Shown: positions 23,186 through 64,000, numbered from the stretch's first letter. The stretch is 64,000 nucleotides of DNA from an uncultured Holophagaceae bacterium (GCA_903840385.1 CAIMFT010000063.1:1620-65619), one strand, 5' to 3'. Notes: generated from the letters alone by a model not told the origin. Program-made: numbers and translations.

Positions 23186-23533
23186 GTGCCCCTGGATGCC
23201 CCGACCCCCCTCTTTGTGGGGGAGCGCCTGCGAGATCTGATCCTGTGCTACGCCGGGCCCTGGGCGTTTGTGCCCTACATCCGCAGCCGGGAGGACAGCG
23301 AGCTGCTCTGGCATGCGCGGCAGGGCGTGATCCTGGCGTTTGCCGAGTGCGTGGTGGCTCTGGCCCTGGTCTTCATCGGCATCTTCCCCCTCTTTGGCTG
23401 GATCTTCGTCCGCTTCTTCCTGCCGGTGTGGCTGCTCTGGTGCCTGAGCATGGCCGTCACCAGCGTCCTGCAGGCCAGCAAAGGCAAGCGCCACAAGATC
23501 CCGGTGCTCCATCAGTTCATCGATTACCTCTGA
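23186..23533 (+). CDS. DUF4870-family small membrane protein
   Basis: Three TM segments, WHARQG, terminal KIPVL pattern. Confidence 0.7.
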   Translation: MPLDAPTPLFVGERLRDLILCYAGPWAFVPYIRSREDSELLWHARQGVILAFAECVVALALVFIGIFPLFGWIFVRFFLPVWLLWCLSMAVTSVLQASKGKRHKIPVLHQFIDYL

Positions 23534-23540
23534 TCCCTAG

Positions 23541-23588
23541 CGGGTCGCGGAGCAGGCGACTGAACGTCGCCTGCGGAGCGGGGACCCG
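23541..23588 (+). repeat. 48-nt covarying intergenic stem-loop element, copy A (REP-like or structured RNA)
   Basis: cgggt-cgc-gga-gcaggcgac-tgaac-gtcgcctgc-gga-gcg-ggg-acccg; same length and pairing as 63429-63476. Outer stem extends 23531-23597. Confidence 0.7.
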
Positions 23589-23616
23589 CTGGGATCAGAA
23601 TCATCTGCCGAGCGGG

Positions 23617-24684
23617 TCACCCCTGGGTCGGTCCCACGTTCAGGAGCAACATCGCATCCCCATAGCTGAAGAAGCGGTAGCGCTCGCGCACGGCCTCGGC
23701 GTAGGCGGCCTTGGCCAGGTCCAGGCCCAGCAGGGCTGAGACCAGCACGAACAGGGTGCTCTCGGGCAGGTGGAAGTTGGTGAGCAGGTGGTCGGCGGTG
23801 CGCAGGCGGTGGCCCGGCTGGATGAAGATGCGGGTGCTGCCCAGCCGGGCCAGAGCCTGCCCGTCCCAGGCACCCTCGAGGGTGCGCAGTGAAGTGGTGC
23901 CCACACAGAGCACCGGGCGCGAGCGGTCCCGCAGCACCGGCTCCAGGGCGGCGGCGGTGGCCTCGGGGACCTCGAAGCGCTCTTCGTGCATGGCGTGCTC
24001 GGCGAGGGTCTCGGCCGTCATAGGGCGGAAGGTTCCGAGGCCCACATGCAGACGCACCGGGTGCCACCCGCAGCCCCGGGCCTGGAGGTCGGCGATGAGC
24101 TCTGGGGTGAAGTGCAGGCCGGCGGTGGGGGCGGCGACGGCCTCGCCTTCCCGGGCCGCAAAGACTGTCTGGTAGCGAGTCTCGTCCTCGGCCTCCGCCA
24201 GGTGGTCGATGTAGGGCGGCAGGGGCAGGCGGCCGATGCGGTCGATCTCGTCCCAGTCGAGGCCGTGGTCGGAGCTGACCCGGACGGCCCGAAGGCCTTC
24301 GGGCAGGGTCTCCAGGATCTCGATCCGGGCCAGGGTCGCCCCGGACTGGGGCTCCACCACCGTGGCGGCAGCGCCGGGCTTGAGGCGGGCGCCCGGCTTC
24401 ACCATCGCCTCGAAGACACCGCCCCCGAGGTTGCGCAGCAGGAGCGCCTCGCCGGCGCCGCCCCCGGCCCGGCGCAGGAAGAGCCGGGCATGGCGCACCC
24501 GCACATCGTTGGGCACACAGAGGCTCTGGGGTGGCACCAGCTCCGGGAGGTCCCGGATGGTGCGGTGGGACCAGCTGCCGGTGCGGGCGTCCACCACCAG
24601 CAGGCGGGCGCCATCCCGCGCCGGGGCGGGGTGCTGGGCGATGAGTTCCTGGGGCAGGTCGAACCCGAATGCGGTGCGCTGCAT
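23617..24684 (-). CDS. queA: S-adenosylmethionine:tRNA ribosyltransferase-isomerase
   Basis: FDLP.ELIAQ.P, LPLPPYI, YQTVFA, AAPTAGLHF, LHVGLGTF.P, TNFHLP.STL, RYRFFSYGDAM. Confidence 0.97.
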   Translation of the reverse strand: MQRTAFGFDLPQELIAQHPAPARDGARLLVVDARTGSWSHRTIRDLPELVPPQSLCVPNDVRVRHARLFLRRAGGGAGEALLLRNLGGGVFEAMVKPGARLKPGAAATVVEPQSGATLARIEILETLPEGLRAVRVSSDHGLDWDEIDRIGRLPLPPYIDHLAEAEDETRYQTVFAAREGEAVAAPTAGLHFTPELIADLQARGCGWHPVRLHVGLGTFRPMTAETLAEHAMHEERFEVPEATAAALEPVLRDRSRPVLCVGTTSLRTLEGAWDGQALARLGSTRIFIQPGHRLRTADHLLTNFHLPESTLFVLVSALLGLDLAKAAYAEAVRERYRFFSYGDAMLLLNVGPTQG

Positions 24685-37768: not shown

Positions 37769-37900
37769 GGTTGTATTCCTCGTCCAGGTTCTTTTGGGCA
37801 CATGTTTCGCGGGGGCTTCATAACCATGTCTTATCGTGTGCCCTGGGTCGGGCATGTGTTTTGGCACAGGCCCCCTGGTGGCTCCTCCAAAAAAAATAAA

Positions 37901-37928
37901 TAAAGGTTTCTGGCAGGGGATCCGAAAG
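37901..37928 (+). promoter_or_regulatory. Putative sigma28 (FliA) promoter of flagellin
   Basis: TAAA-N16-TCCGAAAG versus consensus TAAA-N15-GCCGATAA, preceded by an A-tract; a similar motif occurs before fliS-2. Confidence 0.55.
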
Positions 37929-37960
37929 AGGAAAGGTCGGGGGTTCCCCCCACACAACCA

Positions 37961-37999
37961 GGCAGCACGGATGCTGCCAACCTACATCACGGAGGATGT
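37961..37999 (+). promoter_or_regulatory. Two CsrA/RsmA-type hairpins in flagellin 5' UTR
   Basis: GGCAGC-ACGGAU-GCUGCC and ACAUC-ACGGAG-GAUGU, both with ANGGAN loops; the second sequesters the Shine-Dalgarno. Confidence 0.7.
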
Positions 38000-38000
38000 T

Positions 38001-38603
38001 ATGGTTACCATTCTTTCCAACATCAACGCCCTGGCCGCCAGCCGCCAGTTGGGCATCACGAAGATCGGTCTGAACACGACCATCACGCGGCTCACCACCG
38101 GTCGGCGGGTCAATACCGCCTCGGACGATGCCGACAGCCTCACCAAGGGCAATACTGCCCAGGCGGCGGCCCGTAAGGCTGGGGCTGAGGTCTATGCGGC
38201 GCAGGCCGCTTACTTCACCGCCCTGAATACCGACGGTGCGAACCAGGAAGCAACGCAGGCAGCCTACAAGATGGCCGAGATGGAAGGTGGCGGCAACGAT
38301 ACCTCCGCTGAATACACTGCGCTGGGCGTCATTGCGGGTGGCGCGACTTCGACCCTGGCCCTGGCCGTCATCGAAACCGATCAGGCCACCAACGCCAAAA
38401 CCATGACCGACAACTTGTCCAAAGCCAACAAGAGCGGCATCGAGGCAGAAACCCAGCAGGGCATCGCTGATGCTTACCTGGGTGCTGACATGGGCGCCGA
38501 GATGGCGAACCTCAGCAAGTTCCAGATCATGATGCAGGCGGGCACCAGTGCGCTGAACAACGCGAACCAGTCCACCCAGACGATCCTCGGCCTCTTCCGG
38601 TAA
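38001..38603 (+). CDS. fliC: Flagellin, unusually short (200 aa) and diverged
   Basis: N-terminal I.SNINAL.A.RQL......L...ITRL.TGRRVN.ASDDA; C-terminal ADMGAEMANLSKFQI..QAG.SAL..ANQ..Q.IL.LFR; no Pro/Trp/Cys/His; followed by flaG-fliD-fliS. Confidence 0.88.
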   Translation: MVTILSNINALAASRQLGITKIGLNTTITRLTTGRRVNTASDDADSLTKGNTAQAAARKAGAEVYAAQAAYFTALNTDGANQEATQAAYKMAEMEGGGNDTSAEYTALGVIAGGATSTLALAVIETDQATNAKTMTDNLSKANKSGIEAETQQGIADAYLGADMGAEMANLSKFQIMMQAGTSALNNANQSTQTILGLFR

Positions 38604-38621
38604 GTAGGTAGTCTCTGACTT

Positions 38622-38654
38622 CTGGAGGGGGCGGATCCCATCTGCCCCCTCCAG
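38622..38654 (+). terminator. Stem-loop after flagellin (terminator/attenuator or stability element)
   Basis: ctggagggggcgga-tccca-tctgccccctccag, 14-bp stem with one G-U; only a weak U-tract (ccgttt). Confidence 0.55.
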
Positions 38655-38682
38655 CCGTTTGAAACCGGAGAGGAGGTCCATC

Positions 38683-39060: not shown

Positions 39061-40794
39061 ATGGCTACGACATCGGGCACTTCGATCAGTGGTGTCGCTA
39101 CGGGTGTGGACACCACATCCCTGATCAATGCCATCATTGCGCAGAAGGGTACAAACCTGACGCGGTTGCAGGCCCGCAGGGACCTCAATGACAAGAAAAC
39201 CGCCGCCCTGACGGCTCTGAGGACCAGCCTGACTGCCCTAAATGTTAGCCTGGCGGTCATTCAGGACAAGTTCAACAGCCGCACGGTGAGCAGCACCGAC
39301 GTCAACAACACCAACGTCACGGCCACGGCCTCCGGTGCCCTGGCGGACACCTACGACATTTCGGTCAAGACGGTGGCCACCAAAGGGCGGATCTCAGCGA
39401 CCTTGGACTCAAAGGGCTGGACCACCAACCTGGCTGTGGCCAGTCCCACGGACTCAGTCAACTCAGGGATCTTCACCGCTGGAACCCCAGCCAGCTTCGC
39501 CATCCAGGGAACCGACGGCGTGATCAAGACGATCACCCTGGACGCCAGCTCCAACACCTTGAATGGCCTGCGCGATAAGATCAACGCTTCCGGGGCTGGG
39601 GTCACGGCCTCGGTTGTGAACATGGGCAAGGGCGACAAGCCCTATCAGCTGGTACTCACTGCCAAGGCAACCGGAACCGGCGTCACCCAGGGGGTGGTCA
39701 CGCTGGTTGATATCACCGACCCTGTGCCAACGGACCCGGCCACCGGCCTTCCAATTGCCACAAACAGCCTGGGAATTGCGGCGGGTACCGTAGATCTGGT
39801 GGCCAAGGCCCTTACGGGAGGGCTCAGGTCCTCGGTGGCGGGAACAGCCACAGACGCGGACTTTACCCTCAATGGCATTGAGCTCACTCGCTCGACCAAC
39901 GTGGTCAAGGATGCGGCAGAGGGTATGACCTTCACCCTCAAGCAGGGGGGGCAGACGGGTACAACGACCCTGACGGTGGGCCTGGATAAGGCCGGCGCCA
40001 CGGCCGCCATGGCGGACTTCATCAGCAAGTACAACCAGCTGCTGAAGGACTATAAGGCGGCGTCCACCTCCACCAAGAATGCGGATGGTTCCGTCAACCA
40101 AGCCGCCCTGGCGGGTGACGCCGCCACGATCGCGTTGATGAGCACCCTCAAGTCCAGCCTGGCGGGTGCGTCTGCCGGCTTGCCCGGCACCGCCACCTAC
40201 CAATCCCTGGCCGGCGTGGGCATCACCAACATGGCAGATGGCAGTCTGTACCTAAACACCAACGCGTTTCAGACAGCAATGGCCAATGACCTTGGGTCTG
40301 TTCAAAAATTATTCAGCTTTTCGGGAGTCTCCACTAACCAGGGTGTCACCTTCAAAAGCGCGGGGCCCAAAACGGCCACGGGCACCGTGGATGTCACTAT
40401 CACCAAGGATGAATCCGGGACCCTTTGGGGAACCCTGATGCGGAACAACGTGGCCAGTGCGCCCATCCAGGTCACCAATGGGGTCCTGATTGGTACTGGG
40501 GACCTGGAAGGGTTGAACCTGACTGTGACTGATACTGGCAGTGGGACCTTGACCCTTAGCCGCGGTGCGGGCCAAGCGGGGTCGGACTTGCTCACCAAGT
40601 TCACCGGTCTGGGCGGGGGCATCACCACTGGGTTGAACACTGTTTTTGCTCAGAACAAGAACCTGGCCACTCAGATCATCCAGGCCCAGACAATGCTGGA
40701 CCGGGAAAAGGAAGTCTTGAAACAAAAGTTCGCCAAGATGGAAGCTGCCGTGGGTGCCATGAAAGCATCTGCCGGTTCGCTAACCGGGGCGTAA
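39061..40794 (+). CDS. fliD: Flagellar filament cap protein FliD
   Basis: SG..TGVDT.SLI.AII, DA.FTLNGI...RS.N.V.D, C-terminal L.Q.FAKMEA....M. Confidence 0.92.
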   Translation: MATTSGTSISGVATGVDTTSLINAIIAQKGTNLTRLQARRDLNDKKTAALTALRTSLTALNVSLAVIQDKFNSRTVSSTDVNNTNVTATASGALADTYDISVKTVATKGRISATLDSKGWTTNLAVASPTDSVNSGIFTAGTPASFAIQGTDGVIKTITLDASSNTLNGLRDKINASGAGVTASVVNMGKGDKPYQLVLTAKATGTGVTQGVVTLVDITDPVPTDPATGLPIATNSLGIAAGTVDLVAKALTGGLRSSVAGTATDADFTLNGIELTRSTNVVKDAAEGMTFTLKQGGQTGTTTLTVGLDKAGATAAMADFISKYNQLLKDYKAASTSTKNADGSVNQAALAGDAATIALMSTLKSSLAGASAGLPGTATYQSLAGVGITNMADGSLYLNTNAFQTAMANDLGSVQKLFSFSGVSTNQGVTFKSAGPKTATGTVDVTITKDESGTLWGTLMRNNVASAPIQVTNGVLIGTGDLEGLNLTVTDTGSGTLTLSRGAGQAGSDLLTKFTGLGGGITTGLNTVFAQNKNLATQIIQAQTMLDREKEVLKQKFAKMEAAVGAMKASAGSLTGA

Positions 40795-46385: not shown

Positions 46386-46613
46386 GGGAACGCCTCCTGT
46401 CTGATGCTGCAAGTGTGGCGCACTGCGCAGGGTCAGAGGAGGGAAATGAATGGGGTGCTGGTGGAGAGGTAGCGTCAAAAAAAATGACGATTTTTTGAAT
46501 TTCTCTGTTGACCTCATCCCGATCGCTGGTTTTATGTTGAATCAGAGGAATATTGGCCAACCATCTTCCCCATAGGGCCTGCAGCGAGGTATCTGAGATT
46601 TGGAGCGTGGTAA

Positions 46614-48065
46614 ATGCTAAAGAAAGTCGCCATATTCAAGGCCCTCGATGTGGAAATCAAGAAGCAGAGGGGACCCGTGGCGGTTAAGGACGGCTACAAG
46701 GGCCATCACTCCCTCAAAGAAGAGCTCAGCCAGCCTGGAATCACCATCTTGGGCGAAGTGGCCGGGGGTGACCCTGGCCGTGGTCAGGTGCGGGAATCCT
46801 ACAAGGCCTCCACCCACGCCAAGAGTCTGGCGGAAAACGGTGCCAAGGCGCTCTCCATCGCCACGGACAAGTTCCTCTACTACGGCGAGGACAAGCACCT
46901 CTCCGAGGTGCGCGCTCAGGTGAAGGTGCCCCTCATCCGTCGGGACTTCATCTTCGAGGAGTACCAGGTCGAGGAGAGCAAGATCCTCGGTGCCGATGCC
47001 ATCTACCTCATGCCGGCCATGCTCCCCCAGGAGCGGCTGCAGACCCTGCTGAAGTTCGCCATGAGCAAGGGTCTCGACGTGGTGGTGGAAGTGACCTCCG
47101 AGCTGGAGCTGGCCCGGGCCGTGGAGGCCGGGGCTGACATCGTGTGTGCCGTGGGCCGCAACCTCGACACCTGGGAAGCCTCCTGGGACCTGGCGCTCGC
47201 CCTCGTGAAGAAGGTGCCCAAGAGCTGTCTCCGCATGATCGAGGGCGGCGTCCTGCGCCTCGAGCAGATCAAGCAGGCCGAGGCCCTCGGGGTCCACGGT
47301 CTCCTCATCGGGGACGCCCTCCTCGACGACTACTATCCCGGCAAGCGCCTGGCCCAGATCCTGGCCGGCGTCGAGCCCCCAAAGAAAGCCGTGAAGCCCA
47401 AGGGCAAGACCGGCTCTGCCGCAGCAGCGGCGTTAGCCCCCACGGCCGCTCCTGCGGCCAAGGAATCCATCCCCACCCCGCGGGAAGTGCCTGCCCCCAC
47501 CGGCGCCAAAAGCGCCAAGGGCAAGGTCGCCACCCCCGCTCTTCCTTCCACCCCCGCCCTTAAGGGCAAAAAGGAGCCAAAAATGGCTGATCTGACCCCT
47601 CCGGCCGCCGCGCCGACCCCCGCCGCCCCGAAGAAGGCCGCCGCCAAGAAGGCCGCCCCCAAGAAGGCTGCTGTGAAGAAGGCCGCTGCCCCCAAGAAGG
47701 CCGCCGCCAAGAAGCCCGCCGCCAAGAAGGCCGCTGCCCCCAAGAAGGCCGCCGCCAAGAAGCCCGCCGCCAAGAAGGCCGCTGCCCCCAAGAAGGCCGC
47801 CGCCAAGAAGCCCGCCGCCAAGAAGGCCGCCCCCAAGAAGGCCGCCGTGAAGAAGGCCGCTGCCCCCAAGAAGGCCGTTGCCAAGAAGGCCGCCCCCAAG
47901 AAGGCTGCCGTGAAGAAGGCTGTTGCCCCGAAGAAGGCCGTTGCCAAGAAGGCCGCCGCCCCCAAGAAGGCTGTTGCCAAGAAGGCCGCCCCCAAGAAGG
48001 CCGCCGCTCCCAAGAAGGCCGCCGCCAAGAAGCCGGCTGCCAAGAAGGCCGCTGCCAAGAAGTAG
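46614..48065 (+). CDS. TrpC (IGP synthase)-like barrel with degenerate active site fused to histone-H1-like Lys/Ala/Pro tail
   Basis: LS..TD, P..R.DFI...YQ..E....GADA, VEV, LIG.AL pattern of IGPS, then about 145 aa of KKAAAPKK repeats in the same frame. Confidence 0.8.
   Translation: MLKKVAIFKALDVEIKKQRGPVAVKDGYKGHHSLKEELSQPGITILGEVAGGDPGRGQVRESYKASTHAKSLAENGAKALSIATDKFLYYGEDKHLSEVRAQVKVPLIRRDFIFEEYQVEESKILGADAIYLMPAMLPQERLQTLLKFAMSKGLDVVVEVTSELELARAVEAGADIVCAVGRNLDTWEASWDLALALVKKVPKSCLRMIEGGVLRLEQIKQAEALGVHGLLIGDALLDDYYPGKRLAQILAGVEPPKKAVKPKGKTGSAAAAALAPTAAPAAKESIPTPREVPAPTGAKSAKGKVATPALPSTPALKGKKEPKMADLTPPAAAPTPAAPKKAAAKKAAPKKAAVKKAAAPKKAAAKKPAAKKAAAPKKAAAKKPAAKKAAAPKKAAAKKPAAKKAAPKKAAVKKAAAPKKAVAKKAAPKKAAVKKAVAPKKAVAKKAAAPKKAVAKKAAPKKAAAPKKAAAKKPAAKKAAAKK
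47631..48062 (+). repeat. Coding low-complexity repeat (PKKAAAKK)n, including three perfect 48-bp tandem copies at 47676-47819
   Basis: Unit aagaaggccgctgcccccaagaaggccgccgccaagaagcccgccgcc starts at 47676, 47724 and 47772. Confidence 0.95.
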
Positions 48066-59994: not shown

Positions 59995-62900
59995 ATGACC
60001 ACTGCGCCCGCACCCGCCACGCTCCAGCAGGAAGGAACCGCACCCCGCCACAAGGTGCGCTTCGTCACGGCCGCCAGCCTCTTCGATGGGCACGACGCCA
60101 GCATCAACATCATGCGGCGCATCCTGCAGTCCACGGGCTGCGAGGTCATCCACCTGGGCCACAACCGGGCCGTGCAGGACATCGTGGAGACCGCCCTCCA
60201 GGAGGATGCCCAGGGCATCGCTGTCTCCAGCTACCAGGGTGGCCACGTGGAGTACTTCAAGTACATGGTGGACCTGCTGCGGGAGCGCGGCGCTGGCCAT
60301 GTGCAGATCTTCGGCGGCGGCGGCGGCGTGATCTCCCCCGAGGAGATCGCCGAGCTCGAGGCCTACGGCGTAGCGCGCATCTACAGCCCCGAAGACGGCC
60401 GCCAGATGGGCCTCCAGGGCATGATCGACGACATGGTCCAGCGCTGCGACAGGGACCCCCGCAGCACGCCCGCCGCCCACGACCTGGCCCGCCGCATCAC
60501 CGAGATCGAGCTGGCCGATGGCCAGCAGGCTGCGACCAGGCAACCCGCCGCCAACGGCGTAGCCCAGGCCGTGCTCGGCATCACCGGGACCGGTGGCGCC
60601 GGCAAGTCCTCCCTCATCGATGAGCTGCTGCGTCGCTTCCTGGTGGACTTCCCGGACAAGCGGGTGGCCGTGCTCAGCGTGGATCCCACCAAGCGCAAGA
60701 CCGGCGGCGCCCTGCTGGGGGACCGCATCCGCATGAACTCCCTGTACCACCCGGAGCTCCGGGACCGCGTCTTCATGCGCAGCCTGGCCACCCGGAGCGC
60801 CGCGCACCGTGCCACCAGCGAGGCCCTGTCTGCCAGCATCGGTGCCGCCCGCGATGCGGGCTATGACCTGGTGATCGTGGAGACCGCCGGCATCGGCCAG
60901 AGCGACAGCGAGATCGCGGACCTGGTGGATCTCTCCATGTACGTGATGACGCCGGAGTACGGTGCCGCCAGCCAGCTTGAGAAGATCGACATGCTCGACT
61001 TCGCCGACCTGGTGGTGCTGAACAAGGCCGACAAGCGCGGTGCCGAGGATGCCCTGCGGGATGTGCGCAAGCAGGTCCAGCGGGCCCGCAAGGCTTTCGA
61101 TGTCCCCCTCGAGGAGATGCCGGTCTTCGCCACCTGCGCCAGCCAGTTCAACGACCCTGCCACCGACTGGCTCTTCGTGAACCTGGTGCGCCTGCTGTCG
61201 GACCGCACCGGCGCCGGCTGGGTGACCCAGCTGGCCGCCGCACCGACACCCCCGAAGCAGGCCGCCATCATCCCCCCCGCCCGGGTCCGCTACCTGGCGG
61301 AGATCGCCGACACCGTGCAGAGCTACAAGGCCTGGGCCGGTCGCCAGGCCGACACCGCCGAGGCGGCCCACGCCCTCTGGACCAGCCTGCAGGTGCTGGG
61401 CGACAAGGTGCCGCCCGCCGGGACCTTCTATGACGTCGCCCACCTCACCGAGCGCGGCGAGGGCGACCAGGGCCTGGCCCTGCTGGTGCTGCGCCAGCGC
61501 TACCAGGAGCACCTGGGCGAGCTGCACGCCGAGAGCCGCCGCCTGATCCACGACTGGGCCGGGGTGAAGCGCTGCTACACCGAGCCCGAGAACATCTACG
61601 TGGTCCGGGGCAAGGAGATCCGCACCGCCAACTACACCGTGTCCCTCAGTGGGTCGATGATCCCCAAGGTGGCCCTGCCCTCCTTCCGGGGCTGGTCCGA
61701 CCTGCTGCGCTGGCAGCTGCTGGAGAATCTGCCGGGCCGCTTCCCCTACACCGGCGGCGTCTTCGAGTACAAGCGCGCCGGTGAGGACCCCACCCGCATG
61801 TTTGCCGGCGAGGGTACCCCTGAGCGCACCAACAAGCGCTTCCACTTCGTCAGCAAGGGCCAGCCCGCCGTGCGCCTCAGCACGGCCTTCGACAGTGTGA
61901 CCCTCTATGGCGAGGACCCCCATGTCCGCCCCGACATCTTCGGGAAGATCGGCAACAGCGGCGTGTCCGTGTGCACCGTGGACGATGCCAAGAAGCTCTA
62001 CTCCGGCTTCGACCTGCTCTGTCCCACCACCAGCGTGAGCATGACCATCAACGGCCCTGCGCCCACCATGCTGGCCTTCTTCCTCAACGCCGCCATGGAC
62101 CAGAAGGCCGAGCAGTGGCTCAAGGAGCACGGCCAGCTTGAGGCTGCCGTGGCCCGGGTGGATGCGGACTGCGCGGCCCTGGGCGTGCCCCGGCCCCGCT
62201 ACGAGGGCGGCCTGCCCGAGGGCAATGATGGCCTGGGGCTGGCCCTGCTGGGGGCCTCTGCCGCCGAGGTGCTGCCCCCGGACGTCTATGCCAAGGTGCG
62301 GGCCGAGGCCCTGCAGACCGTGCGCGGCACCGTCCAGGCCGACATCCTCAAGGAAGACCAGGCCCAGAACACCTGCATCTTCAGCGCCGAATTCAGCCTC
62401 AAGGTCATGGGCGACATCCAGCAGACCTTCATCCAGGAGAAGGTCCGCAACTTCTACTCGGTGAGCATCAGCGGGTACCACATTGCCGAGGCTGGGGCGA
62501 ACCCCATCAGCCAGCTGGCCTTCACCCTGGCCAACGGCTTCACCTTCGTGGAGTACTACCTCTCCCGGGGCATGCACATCGACGACTTTGCGCCGAACCT
62601 GTCGTTCTTCTTCAGCAACGGCCTCGACGCGGAGTACAGCGTCATCGGCCGGGTGGCGCGGCGCATCTGGGCCGTGGCCATGAAGGAGCGCTATGGGGCC
62701 AATGACCGCAGCCAGAAGCTCAAGTACCACATCCAGACCTCGGGGCGCTCCCTGCACGCCCAGGAGATCGACTTCAATGACATCCGCACCACGCTCCAGG
62801 CCCTCTACGCCATCTACGACAACTGCAACAGCCTGCACACCAACGCCTACGATGAGGCCATCACCACCCCCACCGAGGCCAGCGTGCGTCGGGCCATCGC

Positions 62901-63420
62901 CATCCAGCTCATCATCAACCGGGAGCTGGGCGGGGCCAAGAACGAGAACCCCCTGCAGGGTGCCTACCTGATTGAGCAGATGACAGAGCTGGTGGAGGAG
63001 GCCGTGCTGGCCGAGTTCCGCCGCATCGCGGACCGGGGCGGCGTGCTGGGTGCCATGGAGACCATGTACCAGCGCGGCAAGATCCAGGAAGAGTCCATGC
63101 ACTACGAGCACCTCAAGCACAGCGGGGAGCTGCCCATCGTGGGCGTGAACACCTTCCTGAATCCCGATCCCCCACCCGCCGGGAAGCCTGAGCTGATCCG
63201 CAGCACCGAGGCGGAGAAGCAGCAGCAGATCGACAACCTGGCCGCCTTCCATGCCCGCAATGCCCACCGCTCCCCGGCCGCCCTGGCGCGCCTGAAGGAA
63301 GTGGCACAGGGAGGTGGCAACCTCTTCGAGGAGCTGCTGGACGCCGCCAAGGTCTGCAGCCTCGGCCAGATCAGCCAGGCCCTCTACGAAGTCGGCGGGC
63401 AGTACAGAAGGAACATGTAA
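59995..63420 (+). CDS. icmF: Fused isobutyryl-CoA mutase (B12-binding, MeaB-like GTPase, mutase domains)
   Basis: [13 protein letters not shown] (DxH B12 motif), [29 protein letters not shown] (Phe specificity residue), [13 protein letters not shown]. Confidence 0.93.
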
Positions 63421-63428
63421 GCGACCGT

Positions 63429-63476
63429 CGGGTGGCGAAGTGGAGGACTTAATGTCCTCCACGAAGCCGGGACCCG
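63429..63476 (+). repeat. 48-nt covarying intergenic stem-loop element, copy B
   Basis: cgggt-ggc-gaa-gtggaggac-ttaat-gtcctccac-gaa-gcc-ggg-acccg; the structure matches 23541-23588. Confidence 0.7.
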
Positions 63477-63546
63477 ACGAGGAGCTTATGCCACGCACGC
63501 CGCTCGATGGAGCCCTCGGCCTTCGTCGGCGTATCATGGTCCTTCC

Positions 63547-64000
63547 ATGTTTCGCCCCGCCCTGACCCTTGCCCTCGCCGCCCTGGCCCTCTCGGCCGGG
63601 TCGCCGAGGTCTGCCGCGAAGGCAGGCACCACCTACCTCTACACCTACTACGACAAGCAGGGCGGCCTCGTCATCAACAACCTCCCGCCCAGCTACATGA
63701 AGGGGCAGGGCCTGACCCTCAAGAGCGTGGGCGTAGGCAAGGTGCGGCTGGCGGTGACTGTCACCGAGATGGCCCGCGCCCTGAAGAGCCCTGAGCTCAT
63801 TGCGATGGTGGACGAGATCACCCAGACAGAGGGCGTGGACACCCACCTGGCGCGGGCGGTGATCCAGGCGGAGAGCGCCTTCAACTACCGGGCCCGCTCC
63901 CGAGCCGGGGCCCTGGGCCTCATGCAGCTCATGCCCTCCACCGCCGAGCGCTTCGGTGTTCTGGATCCCTTCGACCCCCGGCAGAACATCACGGGCGGCG
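63547..64000 (+). CDS. Lytic transglycosylase (SLT family), truncated by the window end
   Basis: Manual translation: signal peptide, then AVIQAESAFN..A.S.AGALGLMQLMP.TA..FGV.DPFDP.QNI.GG. Confidence 0.92.
   Translation, partial: MFRPALTLALAALALSAGSPRSAAKAGTTYLYTYYDKQGGLVINNLPPSYMKGQGLTLKSVGVGKVRLAVTVTEMARALKSPELIAMVDEITQTEGVDTHLARAVIQAESAFNYRARSRAGALGLMQLMPSTAERFGVLDPFDPRQNITGG

Follow-up and report, generated by a model that had tools for sequence, protein, structure and literature searches.

Two long stem-loops, termed copies A and B, in a 64,000-nt stretch of DNA from an uncultured Holophagaceae bacterium (the window, i.e. the whole of the stretch analysed here) are confirmed as belonging to a hitherto undescribed family of structured hairpins, each about 70 nt long, which Geothrix-like bacteria (Holophagaceae) carry at the stop codons of a few housekeeping genes. 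The structure of the element is shown to be under selection, its orientation and position relative to genes are shown to be constrained, and its loci have been gained, lost and tandemly duplicated. As far as function can be read from sequence, there is about an even chance that the element is a transcribed 3′-end hairpin serving as a terminator, insulator or exonuclease barrier, analogous to the TRIT motif and to the REPs; action as RNA, a role in termination or stabilisation and the binding of any factor are what we infer from these data.

How high-GC phyla without U-tract terminators define and protect the 3′ ends of their mRNAs is poorly understood. With this family the Acidobacteriota (Holophagaceae) gain a well-defined, covariation-rich element that has few loci and a cultured host, Geothrix fermentans. 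It merits an entry of the Rfam type, by which it could be annotated and kept from being confused with coding sequence or assembly noise.

Two copies in the window

Both stem-loops lie on the plus strand where a preliminary description of this DNA had placed them (cores in Table 1), share one architecture and fold as drawn there, with minimum free energies of -48.7 (A) and -39.1 (B) kcal/mol and folding z-scores against dinucleotide shuffles of -6.9 and -7.3, respectively. The pattern CGGGT-N-GC-GRA-N23-GRA-GC-N-GGG-ACCCG has exactly two matches in the 64-kb window, namely A and B, compared to a mean of 0.01 matches in shuffled windows (n = 100), none of which (0/100) had two or more. The five compensatory changes noted earlier between A and B, of which the 9-bp stem has four and the 3-bp stem one, were verified. 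However, the length of 48 nt originally assigned to the element is too short: the helix extends outwards to about 70 nt and includes the stop codon of the upstream gene, and this outer extension adds two compensatory changes (G-C vs U-A and A-U vs G-C), bringing the total between A and B to seven. The stop codon, which had been described as close by, precedes CGGGT by 7 nt in copy A (TGA) and by 8 nt in copy B (TAA), and the element follows a co-oriented gene, in line with the 3′ region placement suggested at the time.

No other hairpin that follows a gene in the window comes close to A and B in stability. Hairpins followed by a U-tract, as expected of canonical terminators, number 10 in the window vs 8.0 ± 2.9 in shuffles and hence are not enriched. 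Copy B sits between the gene for an icmF-type mutase and a lytic transglycosylase gene. Orthologous copies were found for A at seven loci (L016, L023, L024, L031, L046, L099 and L183) and for B at another seven (L006, L015, L019, L043, L047, L028 and L054).

Table 1. Position and parts of copies A and B and of the adjoining genes in the window
Feature	Position	Strand	Remarks
Gene upstream of copy A	23186..23533	+	encodes a small membrane protein (115 aa) that matches DUF2306 and MamF_MmsF weakly; stop codon in hairpin base
Copy A, full hairpin	23529..23599	+	core of 48 nt inside hairpin of ~70 nt
Copy A, core	23541-23588	+	
Copy A, outer stem		+	TCTGATCCC/GGGATCAGA; contains stop TGA 23531-23533; unpaired T at 23538
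Copy A, lower stem, bulge and 3-bp stem	bulge 23581-23583	+	lower stem AGCGGGT/ACCCGCT; 3′ bulge GGG; 3-bp stem CGC/GCG
Copy A, 3x3 loop	23549-23551 / 23575-23577	+	GGA / GGA
Copy A, apical part	23552-23560 / 23566-23574	+	9-bp stem; loop TGAAC 23561-23565
Copy A, 3′ tail	23599..23603	+	AATCA after the hairpin; AATCA or AATAA in frr-type and other copies
queA	23617..24684	-	convergent with the gene upstream of copy A; stop 18 nt past hairpin base
icmF-type fused isobutyryl-CoA mutase gene	59995..63420	+	upstream of copy B; stop codon pairs in hairpin base
Copy B, full hairpin	63418..63488	+	outermost stem TAAGC/GCTTA; TAA 63418-63420 is the icmF stop
Copy B, core	63429-63476	+	
Copy B, between outer stem and core	63423-24 / 63482-83		tandem G.A; then pair C-G and 1x2 loop C/GA
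Copy B, stem, bulge, 3-bp stem and 3x3 loop	bulge 63469-63471		stem GTCGGGT/ACCCGAC; bulge GGG; 3-bp stem GGC/GCC; 3x3 loop GAA/GAA
Copy B, apical part	63440-63448 / 63454-63462	+	9-bp stem; loop TTAAT
Copy B, 3′ tail	63487..63495	+	TATGCCACG after the hairpin; ATGCCA or AGGCCA at icmF locus and in ffs-adjacent class

Several other features of the window are of note. Between 32000 and 46000 the G + C content is 0.59-0.64 vs about 0.69, and this stretch, which looks like a flagellin-glycosylation island, carries genes for flagellin (37836-38603), FliD (39061-40794), an FkbM-type methyltransferase, a nucleotidyl transferase and two TPR + glycosyltransferase-9 proteins. A perfect 15-bp hairpin without a U-tract, CTGGAGGGGGCGGAT-CCC-ATCTGCCCCCTCCAG, directly follows the flagellin gene (38620-38658), and a plain GC hairpin, CAGAGGGGCGCGC-TGG-CGCGCCCCTCTG, stands after the gene at 46614-48065. 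At the edge of the low-GC island (46473-46496) stands CGTCAAAAAAAATGACG with ATTTTTT after it, the one AT-rich terminator of textbook form seen.

Downstream of copy B, the transglycosylase gene has the sequence CGTATCAT (63524-63537) 11-13 nt ahead of its start codon, conserved in the L019 and L028 orthologues. This is possibly the -10 box of a promoter that is nearly leaderless; a promoter here would agree with copy B insulating icmF from the next gene. In addition, the transglycosylase start shares the reading frame of the icmF stop codon, and no further stop lies between the two (63418-63540); as the spacing is not conserved in other species, this match is probably due to chance.

Extent and distribution of the family

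A scan of 185,579 species genomes with the pattern GGGT-N-GC-GRA-N21-25-GRA-GC-N-GGG-ACCC returned 57 loci, 46 of which have a complementary inner stem. These 46 genuine loci come from Geothrix, Holophagaceae or Holophagales, together with a few records labelled only Acidobacteria or Solibacteraceae. The remaining 11 belong to other phyla and lack the inner stem, so that they were set aside as chance matches. A covariance model built from A and B, as the preliminary description had proposed, identified 52 copies with E < 0.001 in the loci of relatives, including neighbouring copies missed by the pattern; the absence of further copies or of covariation, which would have spoken against the element, is thus clearly not what was found. 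With filters off, neither this model nor a broader one (R2) derived from the 52 copies found any copy in the window other than A and B.

Further copies of the family are present in metagenomes, and the window itself recurs in lake metagenomes; a pattern scan of viral contigs gave zero copies. With one to five exact-pattern copies per species genome, the family is a low-copy one. It matches no family in Rfam 15 and no hairpin family described in the searchable literature, although a conceptual analogue, TRIT, is known (see below): the window gave no Rfam hit, 18 related loci gave only tRNA and SRP RNA at places other than the elements, and permissive scans of the elements themselves produced only chance matches to miRNA and sRNA models (E ≥ 0.03, far under the gathering scores).

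Structure and covariation

In an alignment of 50 distinct copies, 97.6% of the cells in the core structure are paired, whereas shuffling of columns gives 75.7% and sliding of partners 36-44%; 13 of the 19 core pairs show double changes (covariation score 0.593 vs 0.194). Covariation is seen in the apical stem of 9 bp, in the three pairs below GGGU/ACCC and, within the 3-bp stem, in the S-S′ pair; the apical loop is variable and has 3-5 nt. Covariation thus reaches well beyond A and B and bears out the earlier proposal of a structure-selected, dispersed element. It also includes the outermost five pairs and with them the stop codon: helix 1 is 97.6% paired in the 22 copies with one shared outer register, and double changes occur in every pair from 10-80 to 14-76. 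At the icmF site the stop codon and its partner change jointly, as TAAGC/GCTTA, TGAGC/GCTCA, TAGCC/GGCTA and TAACC/GGTTA. Outer stem and core are joined by a tandem G.A (C-GA-C / G-GA-G), which is replaced by Watson-Crick pairs in the frr and A classes, plus a small loop or bulge.

The coordinated switch from GGA/GGA to GAA/GAA, which had been read from a comparison of A with B, is no rule of the family. The two loop strands do not always change together among the 50 members (5′/3′ combinations GGA/GGA 24, GGA/GAA 13, GAA/GAA 10 and GAA/GGA 3), and given so loose an association the paired switch is a coincidence of the two copies.

While the invariance of the GGG bulge in the pattern-derived set is built in by the search pattern, a metagenome scan that serves only to test the conservation of the bulge, as most of its matches were due to chance, left the bulge free at 0-5 nt of any sequence and found the inner stem in 15 of the 121 matches listed; 14 of these 15 were true members and one was a chance match, and the bulge was GGG (10) or GGGC (4) in all 14 true members. 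Likewise, copies found by model or synteny and not by the pattern (L054a, L021b, L050b and L183) retain both the GRA/GRA loop and the GGG bulge. The maintenance of a one-sided bulge and of a non-complementary loop argues for a folded single strand and against a duplex palindrome, and a palindromic protein-binding site in double-stranded DNA was ruled out on the grounds of the conserved mismatched loops and the one-sided bulge. Which strand is folded is not identified by the ratio of wobble pairs, as in the 50 copies the proposed RNA strand has 14 G.U pairs vs 10 A.C mismatches.

Related forms exist at the icmF locus, where in several species a type 1 copy is followed on its 3′ side by a "type 2" hairpin, whose loop is 2x2 (GA/GA) and whose bulge is GGGC; in one species this type 2 hairpin is fully Watson-Crick paired (L006b).

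Two other structural assignments were rejected. A kink-turn does not fit, because the GGG bulge is followed by Watson-Crick paired ACCC/GGGU and not by tandem sheared G.A, and because the outer tandem G.A has Watson-Crick flanks and gives way to C-G pairs in copies of the frr and A classes. Two GCGRAGC mini-hairpins in place of the 3x3 loop are likewise not supported by the alignment, as column 33 covaries with column 53 and is not kept complementary to column 27.

Gene context

Read on their G-rich strand, the copies nearly always lie downstream of a co-oriented gene. The distance from stop codon to core is 5-12 nt in at least 12 different genes, with the element on the coding strand in all these cases: GGGT follows after 7 nt at frr, at the gene for an EngB-type GTPase (engB) and at that for riboflavin synthase, after 8 nt at the membrane protein gene of the A locus and one further gene, after 9 nt at icmF, topA, recA and at least two further genes, and after 5 and 12 nt at two more genes. 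Other copies are found 16 nt past a tRNA (L003) or 50-70 nt past a hemerythrin-like or GGDEF gene, with distances to co-oriented genes of 50-260 nt overall. No copy was found between divergent genes, with the possible exception of L009, which lies upstream of a co-oriented gene. Two copies, L050b and L051, are seemingly antisense to their neighbouring genes. The family hairpins are not followed by U-tracts and have tails such as AATCA or ATGCCAC, the only T-run being that of the tRNA copy L003, which is also the sole copy with A and T tracts.

At L051 (5300-5620) the element is flanked on the opposite strand by a pair of repeats, each about 65 nt long; each repeat starts a small ORF (MSTQQERSAT...GWRT), and the two may represent tandem small-peptide genes.

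A distinct class of copies is adjacent to ffs. Here the family hairpin is part of a conserved non-coding unit of about 155 nt located between a DUF2400 gene and the convergent SRP RNA gene (L007, 3376-3670; also L011, L021, L067, L004, L013, L017, L027 and L041). The unit comprises three hairpins, one of them a member of the family. In several Geothrix species it occurs as a tandem pair; it folds with -110 kcal/mol (z-score -6.8), and may be an sRNA gene or a 3′ region common to both transcription units. Paralogy with the SRP RNA was considered and rejected, the local alignment score being 20 vs 15.9 ± 2.3 with 29 of 300 shuffles scoring at least as high, and the Rfam scan gave no hit of an SRP model in the unit.

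Further roles that the position next to stop codons might bring to mind were also rejected. As TGA, TAA and TAG are all used and no extension is conserved, the element is no bacterial SECIS and no other recoding or read-through signal; the in-frame continuation past the stop codon ends after nine codons at copy A and has no conserved spacing at copy B. A CsrA (GGA) site or an SD-like GGAG was dismissed on sequence, GAA variants being common, and a promoter role of the TCAGAAT tail on the lack of a convincing -35 box by eye.

Gain, loss and duplication

The synteny of the A locus, comprising the membrane protein gene, the convergent queA and an ABC transporter gene, is kept across Holophagaceae, with varying occupancy of the site. 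The element is absent from L182, L178, L185 and L186, in which the protein is 65-72% identical, ends in ...DYL or ...DYI and has TAG or TAA as stop codon. The window has one copy, L183 has two and the start of a third, and L184 has an unrelated long hairpin instead, which likewise starts at the stop codon. In this more distant Holophagaceae lineage the hairpin (L184, 1552-1615) is AT-richer, comprises about 23 bp from the stop codon onwards (TAGGTGGCGTTACGAAATGACCTG...CAGGTCATTTTGTTACGCCACCT) and is followed by TATGCC, a tail as found at icmF-type copies.

In lake populations copy A is partially duplicated in tandem as a polymorphism, with a junction leading from 23604 back to 23547 via GCAGCGGTGTGGCAAT. 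The read depth in these populations is two- to fourfold higher across 23547-23604, and the MAG locus L024 has the same duplicated form. The icmF locus has one to three copies, tail-only repeats and one nested insertion. In tandem duplicates the 3′ half is better kept than the 5′ half, and the AATCA or AATAA tail is carried along.

At orthologous sites the inner stems turn over, and identical inner stems recur at different loci of different genomes. In addition, the copies at three unrelated loci, frr, engB and riboflavin synthase, have identical outer arms, TCTGACCCCGCC...GGCGAGGGTCAGAATAA, which include TCTGA...TCAGAATAA, so that TGA is evidently part of the repeat unit. Taken together, gain and loss, duplication and stem turnover indicate that the family spreads and is remodelled over evolutionary time with the pairing at each site maintained.

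Possible functions

If the element is a 3′-end hairpin, it would be transcribed as the 3′ end of the mRNA of the upstream gene. The transcript would then carry the conserved core GGGU-S-GC-GRA-(variable 9-bp stem-loop)-GRA-GC-S′-GGG(bulge)-ACCC on a variable outer stem that would usually pair the stop codon. In a lineage without U-tract terminators, such a 3′-terminal stem-loop might terminate the transcription unit or insulate it, and the hairpin would block 3′-to-5′ exonucleases and so keep the ORF complete. The purine-rich bulge and loop could be the site of a putative factor, or else stable non-Watson-Crick interruptions of a long helix. A role at RNA 3′ ends is favoured by the co-orientation with the upstream gene, by the position at the ends of genes, tRNAs and operons, and by the replacement of the element by other hairpins. 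In particular, the plain hairpins found at the same loci elsewhere, as in L184 and in the Watson-Crick form L006b, suggest that the hairpin itself is the selected feature.

Several observations speak against this interpretation. One low-depth metatranscriptome contig spans copy B into the next gene (63386-63566); the metatranscriptome contigs as a whole are sparse, of low depth or from divergent relatives, so that 3′ ends are unreadable in them, and G. fermentans frr has no usable coverage. Two copies (L050b and L051) seem to be antisense, and the 14 G.U pairs are not clearly in excess of the 10 A.C mismatches. A U-tract at intrinsic terminators is reported to be required by mycobacterial RNA polymerase (PMC3993855), and this makes termination by the hairpin alone doubtful. 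Moreover, two observations are left unaccounted for by a plain terminator: unlinked loci share a conserved core sequence, and tandem duplicates preserve their 3′ half better than their 5′ half.

As a plain hairpin also leaves unexplained the spacing of 7-9 nt, the covarying paired stop codon and the invariant bulge and loop, a second reading has to be weighed, which we consider unlikely: a factor-binding RNA module coupled to translation termination, whose GGG bulge and GRA/GRA loop would be recognised by a dedicated protein or by the ribosome. With its core 7-9 nt past the stop codon, such a module would lie in the mRNA entry channel of the terminating ribosome, and it could modulate termination, recycling, stalling or rescue, or the local decay of a small regulon (frr, engB, recA, topA, icmF and others). 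REPs at ≤15 nt from a stop codon are said, following work by Liang, Rudd and Deutscher in 2015, to cause ribosome stalling. The very narrow spacing (7, 8 or 9 nt in 11 independent genes) and the pairing and covariation of the stop codon are consistent with such a module, as are a bulge that is invariant even when left free, a core sequence that is kept across unlinked loci and species with varying stems, and the translation-related hosts (frr, engB and a tRNA) and neighbours (ffs and queA). However, some members lie away from stop codons (the ffs-adjacent class, the post-tRNA copy and the copies at 50-70 nt), loop or bulge can be replaced by Watson-Crick pairs at orthologous sites (L006b), and products of in-frame read-through are not conserved; we know of no candidate protein.

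A more specific proposal, which appears quite unlikely, is that the GGG bulge and the GRA/GRA loop form a dock for a Holophagaceae factor or for the terminating ribosome and would thereby couple termination at the paired stop codon to 3′-end formation or decay. One possible route would be cleavage in the basal stem, which might turn the messages of frr, recA, topA and icmF into non-stop messages. If this were true, the family, and by analogy the TRITs too, would not be a passive terminator but a module for regulated control at the post-transcriptional level.

It is very unlikely that the element is a REP-like mobile hairpin of single-stranded DNA, i.e. a substrate of an HUH enzyme (RAYT or IS200/IS605-type) or of another hairpin-recognising enzyme, with effects on RNA as by-products. 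The gain and loss between related genomes, the tandem and partial duplicates, the nested copy at icmF and the polymorphism in lake populations are all consistent with such an element, and so are the identical outer arms at the frr, engB and riboflavin synthase loci and the similar counts of G.U and A.C. The heptamer GCGRAGC in both arms corresponds to d(GCGNAGC), reportedly a very stable mini-hairpin according to Hirao and co-workers. However, the mini-hairpin pair G27-C33 is not maintained, column 33 covarying with column 53 instead; the orientation of the copies tracks the upstream gene; and copies persist at orthologous loci across the genus, where they change by compensatory substitution. 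In addition, there are only one to five exact-pattern copies per genome and two in the 64-kb window, no GTAG/CGTC tag is present and no copy was found in viral contigs, so that the preliminary description's alternative of a REP-like HUH-nuclease substrate is left unsupported. A tblastn search with E. coli RayT gave no credible hit in 1.15 Mb of loci plus the window, which is weak evidence, as the query is distant.

Finally, a processing site for RNase III or another endonuclease, at which the interrupted helix of about 27 bp would be cleaved to a defined 3′ end or, in a variant, cut in its basal stem at the stop codon to yield a non-stop mRNA handled by tmRNA, is highly improbable: a long helix with conserved internal loops between cistrons, the stop codon within the double-stranded region and the contig running through copy B are compatible with processing, but RNase III cleavage could just as well be hindered by the bulge and by the three purine-purine pairs in a row, and the post-tRNA and ffs-adjacent copies are explained no better than by a 3′-end hairpin. 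The RNase III sites of phage T7, the RNase III-cleaved arfA hairpin and the Correia elements are comparable cases.

Comparison with known systems

The family is a lineage-specific conserved hairpin at gene 3′ ends, a kind of element already known but undescribed for the Acidobacteriota. Similarities to the attC sites of integrons comprise an imperfect hairpin directly 3′ of an ORF in fixed orientation, conservation of structure over that of sequence, extrahelical bases, an internal unpaired spacer and a variable apical part. However, this identity was rejected, since the R″ (RYYYAAC) and R′ (GTTRRRY) boxes are absent in 60 copies and an integrase context was not seen; furthermore, the hosts in Holophagaceae are core housekeeping genes at syntenic positions (frr, recA, topA, icmF and queA) and not cassettes.

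The RNase III hairpins of phage T7 and the Correia elements (NEMIS) also form families whose members are related hairpins between cistrons, share conserved internal loops and shape mRNA ends and stability. In contrast to these, the Holophagaceae element is chromosomal and lineage-wide and neither a phage element nor a MITE, and has no terminal inverted repeats with target-site duplication. With intrinsic terminators it shares a strong GC-rich hairpin directly past the stop codon of a co-oriented gene or past a tRNA, but the U-tract of 7-9 nt is absent except in L003, the hairpin has about 27 bp with internal loops, and its sequence is shared by unlinked loci.

REPs are found mainly after genes and are able to supply stop codons (PMC3733652). 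Like the REP/BIME and REPIN sequences, the Holophagaceae copies are imperfect palindromes after genes, between unidirectional or convergent ORFs, overlap stop codons and form tandem clusters; in both cases the families are lineage-specific and a role in mRNA stabilisation or termination has been proposed. In contrast, REPs have 20-40 bp, tens to hundreds of copies, a GTAG/CGTC tag and a RAYT gene, none of which was found for the Holophagaceae family: its tandem copies are arranged head-to-tail and not inverted, and in place of the tag, which is absent from the sequence listings of the copies, these have ends such as TCTGA...TCAGA, TAAGC...GCTTA and similar.

The closest likeness in kind is to TRIT, the Tuberculosis Rho-independent terminator motif, a genus-restricted conserved hairpin of Mycobacterium with a narrow position overlapping stop codons, described in the RNIE paper by Gardner et al. 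2011 as lacking a canonical tail and with a suspected binding factor (PMC3152330). Both are lineage-restricted, conserved in sequence and structure and confined to a narrow, stop-codon-overlapping position at gene termini, both occur in high-GC lineages that are poor in canonical U-tract terminators, and for both a binding factor is suspected. However, M. tuberculosis carries 147 copies of TRIT, a palindromic motif that is bidirectional for the most part, whereas the Holophagaceae family has one to five copies per genome, is asymmetric owing to its 3′-strand GGG bulge and non-complementary GRA loops, and is orientation-specific. As the two belong to different phyla and have no sequence similarity, the resemblance is one of kind only; yet since the paired stop codon and the narrow spacing are features of TRITs too, a common principle of stop-overlapping hairpins becomes testable in a second phylum.
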